Origin: a phage
Reading direction: 5' to 3' (one strand)
Length of the DNA: 39,736 bases
Sequence record: PZ379179.1
Shown here: one piece after another, positions 6,125 to 38,867 of the stretch
How positions within the stretch are numbered: the stretch's first letter is position 1
Layout of the letters: each line of letters starts with the position of its first letter
The notes under the pieces: model-generated
Seen by the model: only the letters and a program-made list of their open reading frames with translations
Told to the model about the DNA's origin: nothing
The model's database searches: none
Made by a program: the position numbers and the translations under genes

Positions 6125-6147
6125 AGAGGTTAACCCTAAACTATCAC
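6125..6147 (+). promoter_or_regulatory. Phage RNAP promoter (phi1.1-like)
   Basis: CCTAAACTATCACTATAGGA; predicted +1 G at 6142. Confidence 0.7.
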
Positions 6148-6414: not shown

Positions 6415-6678
6415 ATGGGCCGACTTTATAGTGGCAACCTCAACGATTTCAAAGCAGCGTGTCACAGGCTTTATCAGTTAGACTTCGCTGTCATATCTCA
6501 GGAGTTTCAAGACTATACGTCACGCCAAGAGTGTATGAAACTCAGGGTGGAGGACCGAGCTGGTAACATCTTCGCGCTTGAGACCTTCGCACACTACGAT
6601 GAAGACGTGCTGTATAATACCGCAACCGACTACCTCAACGGTCTCGCTGACCATCTCGACACATGGAGAAAAGAATAA
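6415..6678 (+). CDS. Gene 1.2-like inhibitor of host dGTPase (87 aa)
   Basis: MGRLYSGNLNDFKAA...LRVEDRAGN...HYDEDVLYN closely matches recalled T7 gp1.2 (MGRLYSGNLAAFKAA...LRIEDRSGN...HHDEDVLFN). AGGAG RBS. Confidence 0.85.
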   Translation: MGRLYSGNLNDFKAACHRLYQLDFAVISQEFQDYTSRQECMKLRVEDRAGNIFALETFAHYDEDVLYNTATDYLNGLADHLDTWRKE

Positions 6679-7706
6679 TGACAACTATCAAAACTAACCC
6701 TCACCGCGCTGTAGATTACTCTGAGTCTGGAATTAAGAAGGCACTGGAAGCAGCCGGGTCTCTGGAAGCTGAAGTGAAGTACGATGGTGTGCGCCTGAAC
6801 CTCCTGGTCCTGCGTGAAGGTGAGACCTACTGGCTTAGCCGCGAGTCGAAACCTCTACCAGCCTTGGAGTGGATGAACTCTGAGTTAGGTAATGCGTGGA
6901 CCCAAGCTGACTGGCGATGGTTCCTGCGTCAATCCGGCTACGAAGGTGTGGGCATGATGATTGATGGCGAGGTCATGGTCAAAGGTGTAGACTTCAACAC
7001 CTCCTCAGGTCTCATCCGAACGAAGTGGCTCAAGCCTAACAACGAGGAGTTCGCTGAATACTATTCGCCGGCGACTGGTGGAAAGAAGCTCCCGTTCTGG
7101 GGATCCCGGTCACGACTTCAGGTTGTGGTCTACGGTGTCATTGACATGACAACCATTGCTGACCCGAAAGCCGAAGGTCCTATCCATAGCGTAACCCGCC
7201 TGAAGGCCGAAGCTATCGTCCCTCTTCTCCAGAAATACTTCCCGGAAATCGACTGGGTTCTGTCTGAGAGTCATACAGTGTTCAACCTTGAGTCTCTTCG
7301 TGATTTGTACGAGGAGAAGCGAGCAGATGGACATGAAGGTCTGGTAGTCAAGGACCCACTGGGCAAATACAAGCGTGGTAAGAAGTCTGGTATGTGGAAG
7401 ATGAAGCCGAGTGAAGAGGCAGATGGTCACGTTGTTCGCCCGGTGTGGGGAACAGAAGGCCTAGCCAACGAAGGCATGGTCATCGGCTTTGACGTTATGC
7501 TCGAGAACGGGATGGAGGTCTCCGCAACTAACATTAGTCGCGCCCTTATGTCCGAGTTCACGGAGAACGTTAAGTCAGACCCTGACTACTACAAAGGGTG
7601 GGCTTGCCAGATTACCTACATGGAGGAGACACCAGATGGCTCATTGCGACACCCCTCGTTCTACCAGTGGCGTGGAACTGAGGATAATCCTACAGTCAAG
7701 ATTTAA
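6678..7706 (+). CDS. ATP-dependent DNA ligase (T7 gene 1.3 homolog)
   Basis: Adenylation motif KYDGVR; MTTIKTNP...SYWLSRESK...HEGLVVKDP...KRGKKSGMWKMKP...WACQITYMEETPDGSLRHPSF collinear with T7 ligase. Track ORF begins at 6663; the ATG at 6678 overlaps the gene 1.2 stop. Confidence 0.93.
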   Translation: MTTIKTNPHRAVDYSESGIKKALEAAGSLEAEVKYDGVRLNLLVLREGETYWLSRESKPLPALEWMNSELGNAWTQADWRWFLRQSGYEGVGMMIDGEVMVKGVDFNTSSGLIRTKWLKPNNEEFAEYYSPATGGKKLPFWGSRSRLQVVVYGVIDMTTIADPKAEGPIHSVTRLKAEAIVPLLQKYFPEIDWVLSESHTVFNLESLRDLYEEKRADGHEGLVVKDPLGKYKRGKKSGMWKMKPSEEADGHVVRPVWGTEGLANEGMVIGFDVMLENGMEVSATNISRALMSEFTENVKSDPDYYKGWACQITYMEETPDGSLRHPSFYQWRGTEDNPTVKI

Positions 7707-7707
7707 A

Positions 7708-8118
7708 GTGGACGAAAGGTCGGCCTCCGGGCTGGCACTCCACTCTGGACGAAAGGTAGGAAGTAAGAAGAAGTCCGGCTATTGGACGATAAACGTCAGG
7801 ACACCGTGGGGCCGAAAGCATCTACAGGTTCATAGGGTAATATGGGAGATGACACACGGTCCCATACCAGACGGCATGGAGATTGACCACATTGACCGGA
7901 ACCCTTCTAATAACAGGCTGTCCAACCTGCGACTGGTGACTCACTCCGAGAACAACCAGAACAAAGGACAGATGTCCACCAACACTACCGGAGAACGTCA
8001 CATCTCAAAGGTGAAAGGTCGAGAGCTTTACTGTATCAAGAAGGTGGTCAACGGAGAGCGCTTGGTCCTATATGCCAAGACCATAGCCGAGGCAGTAGCC
8101 TTAAGAGATTCATTATAA
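7708..8118 (+). CDS. HNH homing-type endonuclease (copy A)
   Basis: HNH core [46 protein letters not shown]. The track ORF starts inside the ligase gene; alignment with the paralog at 36668 puts the N-terminus at GTG 7708, directly after the ligase stop. No in-frame ATG is available. Confidence 0.7.
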   Translation: MDERSASGLALHSGRKVGSKKKSGYWTINVRTPWGRKHLQVHRVIWEMTHGPIPDGMEIDHIDRNPSNNRLSNLRLVTHSENNQNKGQMSTNTTGERHISKVKGRELYCIKKVVNGERLVLYAKTIAEAVALRDSL

Positions 8119-8123
8119 TGTCA

Positions 8124-8156
8124 ACCCAGTGGTCTTATGACTGCTGGGTTTCTTTG
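8124..8156 (+). terminator. Rho-independent terminator (TE-like early terminator)
   Basis: ACCCAGTGG-loop-CTGCTGGGT hairpin followed by TTTCTTTGCG, resembling the T7 TE tail TTTCTGCG; sits after the ligase/HNH unit. Confidence 0.6.
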
Positions 8157-8177
8157 CGTACGGGCCACCAGCTAGAC

Positions 8178-8200
8178 CCTAAGCTATCACTATAGGACAA
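8178..8200 (+). promoter_or_regulatory. Phage RNAP promoter
   Basis: CCTAAGCTATCACTATAGGACAA; predicted +1 G at 8195. Confidence 0.65.
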
Positions 8201-8226
8201 CCCTAACCGACCAAAGGAGAAACCTT

Positions 8227-8481
8227 ATGTCTAAAAACTTAATGTTCAACCGATTTACTCGAAGCTTCCACCTGTCGCATAGCCCATTCAGCTTCCATAA
8301 ATCTAATCAACCATTACCCCGCTTTGGTAAGACAGTGGCTCTGTCTCCCACAGTTCATGCGCTAGTCACCCGCAAGTCTATGCTGAAGGCTATGGATAAA
8401 GAACAAGTCGATGTACCTGTTGTCGTTACAAAATGGCCTCGCATTAAGCTGGCCCTTCTGGTAATTAAGGAGGTGTTTTGA
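8227..8481 (+). CDS. Hypothetical protein (84 aa), gene 1.6 position
   Basis: ATG with GGAG RBS 7 nt upstream; no recognisable domain. Confidence 0.5.
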   Translation: MSKNLMFNRFTRSFHLSHSPFSFHKSNQPLPRFGKTVALSPTVHALVTRKSMLKAMDKEQVDVPVVVTKWPRIKLALLVIKEVF

Positions 8482-36224: not shown

Positions 36225-36671
36225 ATGCTCGAATTTTTAAAGAGAGCGGCTCCGTGGTTACTTTCAGCAGTGATATTTGCTGGTGGCTACCACACCGCTA
36301 ACAATAAGTGGGAGGCTAAGGTCAATGCAGAATACACCTCGAATCTTAAGGCATCGGAGGATACAAGACTTGCTGTCCAAGCTGAAGTCAACAAAGTGTC
36401 CAAACGGTTTCAGGACGAAATGTCCTCGCTGGAAGGCAGCACTGATAGGATTATTGCTGACCTTCAGTCTGACAATAAGCGGTTGCGCATCCGAGTCAAA
36501 CCTACGAGTGGAACCACGCAAAGTGACGGTCGATGCGTCATTGATGGTTACGCCGAACTTGACGAACGAGATGCTAAACGTCTTATCGCCATCGGAGTGA
36601 AAGGAGACAAATGGATTAAGGCGCTTCAGGACACTGTGAGAGCCTTGCAGCAAGATAAGGAGGCCCAATGA
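36225..36671 (+). CDS. i-spanin, Rz-like (T7 gp18.5 homolog)
   Basis: 148 aa; MLEFLKRAAPWLL...LEGSTDRIIADLQSDNKRLRIRVK...LDERDAKRLIA...GDKWIKALQDTVRALQ matches T7 gp18.5; N-terminal TM segment. Confidence 0.9.
   Translation: MLEFLKRAAPWLLSAVIFAGGYHTANNKWEAKVNAEYTSNLKASEDTRLAVQAEVNKVSKRFQDEMSSLEGSTDRIIADLQSDNKRLRIRVKPTSGTTQSDGRCVIDGYAELDERDAKRLIAIGVKGDKWIKALQDTVRALQQDKEAQ
36325..36600 (+). CDS. o-spanin, Rz1-like lipoprotein embedded in the +1 frame of the i-spanin gene
   Basis: Track ORF 36277..36600 in an alternative frame inside gp18.5; contains a lipobox-like LTISGC after a hydrophobic stretch LIGLLLTFS. Start uncertain (first ATG at 36325). Confidence 0.45.
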   Translation: MQNTPRILRHRRIQDLLSKLKSTKCPNGFRTKCPRWKAALIGLLLTFSLTISGCASESNLRVEPRKVTVDASLMVTPNLTNEMLNVLSPSE

Positions 36672-37108
36672 TGCTCAGTGATTCGTATGTCTATGATGAG
36701 TCCAGTAAGTCTGGCCTGAAGTCCCTGCGTTCTGGTAAGGACGTGGGGTGTGTGGGAAACCACGGGTATTATCAGGTAGGAACTCGACGTCATGGACTCC
36801 TACTGGCCCATAGAGTCGTCTGGGAACTAACCCACGGTCCTATACCAGAAGGTATGGAGATTGACCATATTGACCGCTGCCGGACTAACAACAGGCTGGA
36901 CAACCTCCGGCTAGTTACTTCAAGCGAGAACTCCTGCAACACCTCAGGACATTCTGACTCAAAGACTGGAGTTAAGAACATATCGTTCCATCAGAATGGC
37001 TACGCTATCGAGGTCATGCGTAAGGGAGTCCGTATGCGAACAACACGTCCTACTTTAGAGGAGGCTATCTCTGTCCGGGACCTAATGCTGGAGGGACTCT
37101 ATGTCTAA
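36668..37108 (+). CDS. HNH homing-type endonuclease (copy B, paralog of 7708..8118)
   Basis: 146 aa; [13 protein letters not shown]...[41 protein letters not shown], about 60% identical to copy A across the core. Overlaps the gp18.5 stop and the terminase start. Confidence 0.8.
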
Positions 37109-38867
37109 GAAAACACCTGCTGAAAGACAGGCTGAAATGACCCAAAGGATGAGGGACGACTTCGTGTTCTTCATCTTCGTTCTCTGGAAAGCTCTTAGCC
37201 TTCCGGTTCCAACCCGCTGCCAGATAGATATGTGTAAGAAGCTGGCTGCTGGGGATAATCGCCGCTTCATCCTTCAGGCTTTCCGTGGTATTGGTAAGTC
37301 GTTTCTGACCTGTGGTTTCGTGGTCTGGAAGCTATGGAACAACCCAGACTTGAAGTTCATGATTGTGTCGGCCTCAAAGGAACGAGCTGATGCTAACTCC
37401 ATCTTCATCAAGCGAATCATCGACCTCATGCCTCAGCTTCAGGAACTCAAACCTAAGCAGGGACAGCGAGATGCGGTTATCAGCTTCGACGTTGGTCCCG
37501 CCAAGCCAGACCACTCACCTTCGGTTAAGTCCGTTGGTATCACTGGTCAGTTGACTGGTAGTCGTGCTGACATCCTGATTGCTGATGACGTGGAGGTTCC
37601 GAACAACTCAGCGACTCAGGCTGCCCGGGACCGTCTGTCAGAGCTTGTGAAAGAGTTCGACGCTATCCTGAAGCCTGGAGGTACAATCATCTATCTGGGT
37701 ACTCCTCAGAACGAGATGACCCTATACCGTGAGCTGGAAGGTCGTGGGTACACCACTACTATCTGGCCCGCTCGTTATCCACGCGACAGGAAGGACTGGC
37801 AGTCTTACGGCGACCGTCTGGCTCCTATGCTTCAGGCAGAGCTGGAAGAGGACCCTGAGTCCTTCTACTGGCGTCCGACTGATGAAGTACGCTTCGATGA
37901 TACGGACCTGAAGGAACGTGAGCTGTCCTACGGTAAAGCTGGCTTCGCTCTACAGTTCATGCTTAACCCTAACCTGAGTGATGCCGAGAAGTACCCTCTG
38001 AAGCTCCGTGACCTTATCGTAGCAGACTTGGACCCAGCGTCTAGCCCAATGGTCTACCAATGGCTTCCTAACCCTCAGAACAAGCGTGAGGACGTTCCTA
38101 ACGTTGGACTCATGGGTGACTCGTACCACACGTATCAGACTGTAGGCTCTGCCTTCAGCGCGTACACTCAGAAGATTCTGGTCATTGACCCTAGTGGTCG
38201 TGGTAAGGATGAGACTGGCTACGCTGTTCTGTACCAGCTCAACGGCTACATCTTCGTGATGGAAGCTGGTGGTATGCGCGGTGGGTATGAGGACTCTACG
38301 CTGGAAGCACTGGCTAAGATTGGTCGTAAGTGGAAGGTCAACGAATACGTCATTGAGGGTAACTTCGGTGATGGTATGTACCTTGAGCTATTCAAGCCTG
38401 TAGCGGCCCGTATACATCCTGCTGCTGTAACTGAAGTGAAGAGTAAGGGTCAGAAAGAACTCCGCATCTGTGACGTTCTGGAGCCTATCATGGGGTCTCA
38501 CCGACTTATCGTCAACGCTGCTGCTATCGTCCAAGACTACCAGTCGGCCTCTGATAAGGATGGTGTTCGTAACCCTATCTACTCTCTCTTCTACCAGATG
38601 ACACGTATCTCTCGTGAACGTGGAGCCTTGGCACACGATGACAGACTTGATGCTCTGGCTATCGGTGTACAGTTCTTCGTTGAGTCTATGGCTAAGGATG
38701 CCAACAAAGGCGAACGTGAAGTCACTGAGGAGTGGCTGGAGGAACAGATGGAGAACCCACGGAAAGGCTTCGAGTCCATCCACACTGAGTTCTGGGACAA
38801 TGGGGTCCGGGTGACTCACGATACGGACGACGAGCTGGGACTAGGGTCCTACGTTACGTTCCACTAG
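37101..38867 (+). CDS. Terminase large subunit / DNA maturation protein B (T7 gene 19 homolog)
   Basis: 588 aa; Walker A-like [10 protein letters not shown], ATPase and nuclease regions; position and size match T7 gp19. GGAGGGA RBS. Confidence 0.95.

Follow-up and report, generated by a model that had tools for sequence, protein, structure and literature searches.

The HNH endonuclease gene that follows the DNA ligase gene of this phage most probably begins inside the ligase gene, at ATG 7636, and encodes a protein of 160 residues, according to comparison of the window (the whole stretch of 39,736 nucleotides that we analyzed, record PZ379179.1) with related loci. A sequence-only reading had placed its start at the GTG at 7708, just past the ligase stop codon; that codon is a GTG at only 2 of 16 HNH-bearing loci and lacks a Shine-Dalgarno (SD) sequence, while ATG 7636 is shared and is preceded by a strong one. 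Taken as a whole, we consider it likely that 7636-8118 is a gp1.45-group gene for an I-HmuI-like HNH_3 enzyme that starts at ATG 7636 and whose spread by homing we infer from its distribution. Features are listed in Table 1.

Table 1. Coordinates of the HNH gene, its parts, and neighboring features in the window
Feature	Coordinates	Strand	Remarks
gp1.2-like gene	6415-6678		Upstream of ligase
DNA ligase gene (T7 gene 1.3 homologue)	6678..7706	+	ORF list; Pfam DNA_ligase_A_M and DNA_ligase_C; annotation of K1F and Vec13
SD sequence GGAGGAG	7622..7628	+	In the ligase Glu-Glu codons (MEETPDG), 7-9 nt upstream of ATG 7636
HNH endonuclease gene (gp1.45 type, allele type A)	7636..8118	+	160 codons plus stop; most probable full gene
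Dual-coding overlap	7636..7706	+	71 nt; ligase C terminus in frame 0, HNH residues 1-24 in frame +1
Segment missing from empty-site alleles	7707..8115	+	About 407-409 bp; right junction ambiguous within about 3 nt
GTG	7708..7710	+	Probable codon for internal Val25
HNH_3 catalytic (beta-beta-alpha-metal) domain	7825..7959	+	Residues 64-108; Pfam
C-terminal three-strand plus helix module	8002..8112	+	Residues 123-159; AlphaFold2
TE-type terminator hairpin	8123..8150	+	12-bp stem, UUAU loop, then UCUUUG
Phage RNA-polymerase promoter AAGCTATCACTATAGGACAA	8181..8200	+	Drives gene 1.6 onward
Gene 1.6	Start 8227		3' of promoter 8181-8200
Paralogous HNH_3 gene	36668..37108	+	146 aa; between ORFs 36225-36671 (148 aa) and 37101-38867 (588 aa)

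Phage and transcriptional context

The source phage is a K1F-like T7-family coliphage (Kayfunavirus), and its genome is complete or near complete. In a whole-genome comparison against a phage collection, the best matches were members of the LM33_P1 species group (∼96% identical). The ligase ORF is open from ATG 6663 and ends with TAA at 7704-7706; the likely start codon, ATG 6678, shares bases with the stop codon (TAA) of the gp1.2-like gene upstream.

The window contains five matches to the phage promoter, where none was expected. The nearest copy upstream of the HNH gene lies at 6138, so the gene has no promoter of its own; our consensus scan for promoters or intrinsic terminators between 7400 and 8300 detected nothing. 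The hairpin that follows the gene, described in the sequence-only reading as a TE-like terminator, is predicted by RNA folding to be stable (−19.8 kcal/mol, z = −3.47) and is invariant among relatives. The HNH gene is part of the ligase transcription unit, upstream of this TE-type terminator.

The start codon of the HNH gene

We sampled relatives among GenBank phages, metagenome contigs encoding the closest proteins, and IMG/VR. Sixteen distinct HNH-bearing loci in three genera were found; they reflect few insertion events, so counts across them are not phylogenetically independent. Six carry an allele that we call type A (the window, RDN8.1, TH16, and three metagenomic contigs) and five carry type B (CLB_P1, PE3-1, PH1061, and two contigs); the remaining carriers are phiYeO3-12 (Teetrevirus), Ebrios and JeanTinguely (both Teseptimavirus), and two IMG/VR contigs. 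Patroon (L071) has the same gene as phiYeO3-12.

The HNH frame is open upstream to 7489 and ends with the TAA at 8116-8118, confirming that an HNH ORF lies directly after the ligase gene and runs to 8118. Besides the in-frame GTG, which is separated from the ligase TAA by one base, the frame has an in-frame ATG at 7636, within the ligase gene and in its +1 frame, such that the two genes would overlap by 71 nt. The sequence-only reading had stated that no in-frame ATG follows the ligase stop. This is correct as far as the conserved N terminus; beyond it, there are two internal ATGs (Met72 and Met81). It had also allowed for an upstream ATG, present in relatives and lost here by sequencing error: relatives do have an upstream ATG, but it is retained in the window, where it lies inside the ligase gene.

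Several observations argue for use of ATG 7636. The GGAGGAG sequence preceding it is kept in all relatives, and its predicted duplex with the anti-SD has an energy of −9.3 kcal/mol, versus −0.7 kcal/mol for GTG 7708 and a mean window background of −2.9 kcal/mol. Starts of other ORFs in the window pair at −5 to −13 kcal/mol, and values of −8 or lower occur at just 3.8% of window positions. The codon equivalent to 7636 is the sole start-capable codon common to all 16 loci: it is ATG in 15 and GTG in one (PH1061). In every carrier, the frame from this codon to the HNH domain is contiguous and free of stops. In seven of the 16, no ATG, GTG, or TTG separates the conserved ATG from the invariant His66, which means that a complete enzyme in those phages needs this ATG or something further upstream.

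The protein itself gives similar indications. The paralogue encoded at 36668-37108 is 45% identical to the ligase-adjacent HNH protein (E = 3e-36), and the N-terminal alignment between the two, on which the GTG start had been based, holds; however, the paralogue's N terminus aligns with IILQSRFKVDERSASGL, i.e., homology reaches upstream of 7708. R-F-K-V-D of the window protein fits the consensus x-[Y/F]-x-[V/I/Y]-D of an alignment of 42 family sequences. AlphaFold2 predicts a helix at residues 12-22 and a strand at residues 23-25, in a model whose overall mean pLDDT is 89.3; block means rise from 49 (residues 1-10) to 90 (residues 11-20) and 97 (residues 21-30). Position 7707 varies between A and G with Lys kept, and position 7710 varies among G, A, and T, both synonymously in the HNH frame. 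The 7708 codon is most likely read as a variable internal Val/Leu/Tyr within an N-terminal motif, [F/Y]-K-[V/L/Y]-D. Starting at ATG 7636, ribosomes would read 24 codons of the 3' end of ligase in the +1 frame; an unconstrained leader would be formed by residues 1-16, and residues ∼17-25 (I-L-Q-S-R-F-K-V) would supply the N-terminal helix and strand of the family.

Initiation at GTG 7708 would instead yield a 136-residue protein through SD-less termination-reinitiation. The ligase stop lies 1 nt upstream, a geometry able to support such coupling, the codon is present both here and in metagenomic locus L009, and HNH-frame variation of the synonymous type begins just past the ligase stop. Nonetheless, we regard this start as improbable. 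GTG is confined to the window and its near-twin L009; across 15 loci, the equivalent codon is GTG in two, GTT in six, GTA in one, TTA in two, CTA in one, and TAT in three, and it is GCA in PH1061, so that 14 of the 16 carriers have a codon there at which translation cannot start and yet maintain an intact, selected ORF. As the sequence-only reading recognized in calling the ribosome-binding site weak, GTG 7708 has essentially no SD pairing, and starting there would remove the conserved aromatic residue Phe23 as well as the predicted N-terminal helix. Some termination-reinitiation at the GTG may occur in the window phage and in L009.

We also considered a noncanonical ATA or ATC start (7684 and 7687), aligned with Met1 of the paralogue, and rejected it: relatives have ACA/ATC or ACA/ACC at these positions, so the codons are not conserved.

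Two carriers have acquired further ATGs. In PH1061 (L005, 2520-2620), a Ser in place of Asp in the ligase MEETPDG peptide turns the shared ATG into GTG, and a Thr-to-Met change makes a new ATG 81 nt downstream, which is the annotated start. An Arg-to-Met change in L007 lies at a distance equal to that of the new ATG of PH1061. These new ATGs may be alternative or compensatory starts.

Enzyme family and selection

The ORF encodes a full-length HNH_3 domain: Pfam PF13392 is matched at profile positions 2-46 of 46 with 83.3 bits (cutoff, 24.8; E = 9e-24), and the phrog_99 "HNH endonuclease" family is matched with an E value of 1.2e-41. All family-invariant residues in the 42-sequence alignment (H66, D84, H85, N97, L98, R99, and N109) are kept in the window protein. 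AlphaFold2 predicts that the C-terminal module consists of three strands (residues 123-125, 132-138, and 141-147) followed by a helix (residues 150-159). This module is probably an AP2-like DNA-binding domain: many homologues have Pfam AP2 (PF00847), and Foldseek matches of the window model to AP2 domains are weak.

Between type A copies, dN/dS is 0.05 to 0.13 over 136 codons, with dS up to 0.8. These values indicate that the HNH gene is under strong purifying selection, and we predict it to be a translated gene and not a decaying remnant. The opposite view, that it is an untranslated homing endonuclease remnant that has lost its start codon, draws on the fact that no SD-equipped start codon lies downstream of the ligase stop, and some relatives do have true remnants (Vec13 and CR44b have a 39-nt scar, and the ORFs of L077 and L100 are truncated to 56 codons; see below). 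That view is quite unlikely given the low dN/dS, the retention of every invariant catalytic residue, and the finding that none of the 16 carriers has a frameshift or a stop.

Probable dual-coding overlap with ligase

The ATG at 7636 is embedded as gATGg in the Asp-Gly codons of the ligase peptide MEETPDG. Because the SD and the ATG are imposed by this conserved peptide, their conservation is no independent proof of use, and this is the main caveat on the start assignment. HNH-less phages also have both signals, which there open only 9 to 29 codons (24 in K1F and 9 in several IMG/VR genomes). An open +1 frame throughout the overlap does not discriminate either: the frame is open in 15 of 15 HNH-bearing rows and in ∼86% of HNH-less rows.

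Within the overlap, ligase-synonymous changes vary HNH residues 2-16 freely, and the five sense codons at the end of ligase (CCT ACA GTC AAG ATT) are identical at 10 of the 11 Kayfunavirus HNH-bearing loci. The final ligase codon encodes Ile or Val in all 15 HNH-bearing rows (ATT, ATA, or GTA, followed by TAA), which gives Phe or Tyr in the HNH frame, whereas 32 of 44 HNH-less rows end in Met, for which the HNH frame would read Cys; the rows in these counts are not phylogenetically independent. We see about an even chance that these patterns reflect a single arrangement, in which the HNH gene supplies no translation signals itself and relies on the SD and ATG encoded by MEETPDG, with its register locked across at least three genera, the last ligase codon forced to coevolve (Ile or Val, not Met), and the gene's interior swappable between HNH lineages. 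If true, this would be a neat case of a selfish gene parasitizing host coding sequence for its expression.

Production of the HNH domain as a ligase fusion by programmed +1 frameshifting near the ligase stop (AAG ATT TAA A) is very unlikely: although the HNH frame is +1 to ligase and open from 7489, such that any shift in the last 200 nt would suffice, there is no conserved shift-prone site (ATT TAA A in Kayfunavirus, GTA TAA G in phiYeO3-12, and ATA TAA G in Ebrios), re-pairing in the P site is expected to be poor, there is no stimulatory SD at prfB-like spacing, and a canonical SD and ATG are on hand instead. RNA folding predicted no stable regulatory or frameshift structure in 7590-7730 (z = +1.31). 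A −1 slippery heptamer, T TTA AAG, is present at the ligase stop; it lies in the third frame, where no ORF runs into it, and we discarded it.

Distribution, empty sites, and possible mobility

The HNH gene is present in RDN8.1, TH16, L007, L009, and L010 and absent from K1F, L042, L044, L050, and the LM33_P1 group. Comparison with relatives lacking the insert, as the sequence-only reading had proposed, defined the insertion boundaries (Table 1). At occupied sites, the segment has the ligase TAA on its left and, on its right, the TAATGT ahead of the hairpin. The empty site reads ...AAGATTTAA/CTAAATGT/CAACCCAGTGG in L044 and L050 and ...AAGAGCTAA/CTAAATGT/CAACCC in K1F; the K1F/L044-type empty-site allele includes ...AAGATTTAACTAAATGTCAACCC....

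Other alleles appear to record loss. In Vec13 (L002, 2602-2640) and CR44b (L048, same site), a 39-nt scar, AGTGGACGAAAGGT/AGCCTTGAGAGATTCATTATAATGT, consists of 14 nt from the 5' end of the type A segment fused at a GT microhomology to 25 nt from its 3' end; read from the ligase-internal ATG, the ORF that remains has 28 codons. By this match, the scar is evidently a type A HNH gene lost by internal deletion.

In two IMG/VR loci, L077 and L100, the ORF from the ligase-internal ATG keeps the gp1.45 N terminus (…RKYKYSKAAPSGVV…) and stops after 56 codons; these ORFs are truncated gp1.45 remnants. Another IMG/VR T7-like genome, L078, has the ligase 3' motif MEETPDGSLRHPSF... twice (7630-7664 and 7757-7791, 127 nt apart); the ligase end seems to have undergone partial tandem duplication at the place where HNH genes of other phages insert.

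The window differs from its closest genomes in a mosaic block. At 7521-8115, LM33_P1 (L069, 1741-2159) has a different ligase C-terminal domain and a 59-aa ORF instead; identity to the LM33_P1 group is 95 to 99% on both sides of the block, and its right edge coincides exactly with the HNH stop. Identity of the window to RDN8.1 and TH16 is 86 to 87% in the HNH gene, 79 to 80% in the 5' part of ligase, and 71 to 72% in downstream DNA. This foreign tract and the pattern of identities are compatible with homing and also with ordinary modular recombination. In a mixed infection, the enzyme would nick or cut HNH-less phage genomes near the ligase/TE junction, and recombinational repair would then copy the HNH gene along with the neighboring 3' end of ligase; such copying would explain why 7521-8115 is foreign relative to the closest genomes.

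Patchy presence, empty sites, and footprints are suggestive of a free-standing homing endonuclease gene under gain, replacement, and loss. The sequence-only reading had reached a mobile homing endonuclease from layout; what favors mobility is the distribution (empty sites in K1F, L044, and L050, footprints in Vec13 and CR44b, and absence from the nearest genomes). In the layout it described, the position between ligase and the terminator is supported and the GTG start is not. Strong purifying selection, dS of 0.6 to 0.8 between carriers, and a fixed position in three genera are as compatible with a gene that has long been resident and was lost repeatedly as with active homing.

Alleles at the ligase site and the paralogue

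Types A (the window, L001, L003, L007, L009, and L010) and B (L006, L008, L046, L047, and L005) share the first ∼8 nt and the last ∼37 nt of the segment, and inside these ends their proteins are just 46 to 50% identical. The common ends encode an N-terminal ...LQSRFKVD and a C-terminal TIAEAVALRDSL. Type B is 63 to 71% identical to gp1.45 of other genera (70 to 71% for Kayfunavirus type B versus phiYeO3-12 gp1.45). The type A allele of the window is as near to its own paralogue (∼50%) as to any gp1.45, and type A resembles the lineage of the 36668 paralogue in its HNH core and in the length of its C-terminal hairpin. Together, these comparisons suggest replacement or swapping of cassettes between HNH lineages at a fixed site.

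The paralogue overlaps both of its neighbors, by an ATGA at its 5' end and by 8 nt at its 3' end, and its SD pairing is −12.2 kcal/mol. From T7 gene order, we take the neighbors to be an Rz-like gene (36225-36671) and the gene for the large terminase subunit (37101-38867). CR8, NS1, and Enterobacter phages have genes similar to this paralogue at the corresponding site.

Annotation and significance

Public records disagree on the length of the HNH protein: 80 aa in RDN8.1, 118 in CLB_P1, 126 in PH1061, 99 in Patroon, and 133 or 89 in metagenome gene calls. Several of these shortened versions would drop the invariant His66-Arg67. At least five internal starts are used in public annotations or gene calls (L001, 2711-2953; L006, 2666-3022; L071, 594-893; P0001; and P0002).

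The chief value of our analysis is for annotation, as it provides a corrected gene model, 7636-8118, with one consistent ligase-internal start. Biologically, it adds a further case of patchy HNH genes in T7-family phages and opens no long-standing question. The series of occupied, empty, and scarred alleles could be used in homing or phage-competition experiments.

Comparison with known systems

The HNH gene is of an already known kind, the gp1.45-type gene that follows ligase in T7-family phages, and HNH genes are described in the literature as sporadic among T7-like phages. Orthologues in RDN8.1 and others are annotated "HNH homing endonuclease." In phiYeO3-12, gene 1.45 (GenBank AJ251805, CDS 7903..8376, "homologous to HNH endonuclease") overlaps ligase (..7973) by the same 71 nt that we propose for the window, and the records of Ebrios and JeanTinguely have an identical overlap. 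Gene 1.45 has counterparts in Ebrios, JeanTinguely, CLB_P1 ("gp1.45-like"), and PE3-1. In our search of the literature on gp1.45, phiYeO3-12, and the ligase overlap, no published account of the gene's expression or homing was found.

Like the gene 1.45 group, the window gene lies directly after ligase gene 1.3 in the +1 frame, has its ATG within the MEETPDG codons, and encodes an HNH_3 domain followed by a C-terminal beta-sheet/helix architecture, with the same N-terminal motif. It aligns over its full length with phiYeO3-12 gp1.45, with 45% identity outside the overlap. Unlike gp1.45 and type B, which are closer to each other, the window allele is just 43 to 50% identical to them outside the overlap; it is homologous to gp1.45 and occupies the same site, possibly as the result of cassette replacement. 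A further difference concerns the terminator: the phiYeO3-12 record places a putative TE inside gene 1.45, whereas the window has its TE-type hairpin downstream of the gene. The putative early terminator TE of phiYeO3-12 (L070, 503-518) is GGCTCC-TTCG-GGAGTC and encodes APSGV; a similar sequence, GGCTCCTTC(T/G)GGAGTC, is found in Kayfunavirus type B alleles and is absent from the type A allele of the window.

The free-standing homing endonucleases of T-even phages are encoded by seg and mob genes; most of these enzymes are GIY-YIG nucleases (Seg) or belong to another HNH group (Mob). Homing or marker exclusion has been demonstrated for several of these genes; the window gene is a candidate for homing. 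As in the T-even systems, the window gene is small, encodes a nuclease, sits between conserved genes, is patchily distributed among close relatives, has no promoter of its own, and is likely subject to low or controlled translation.

Among solved structures, the best match of the AlphaFold2 model is I-HmuI (PDB 1u3e), a nicking HNH homing endonuclease encoded in an intron of Bacillus phage SPO1 (Foldseek alignment of 142 columns, E = 2.1e-4, probability 1.00; identity is just 20% and the TM-score 0.46). In both, a DNA-binding extension appears to come after an HNH beta-beta-alpha-metal core. Unlike intron-encoded I-HmuI, the window gene is free-standing, in an intergenic or overlapping position, and its C-terminal module is predicted to be AP2-like.
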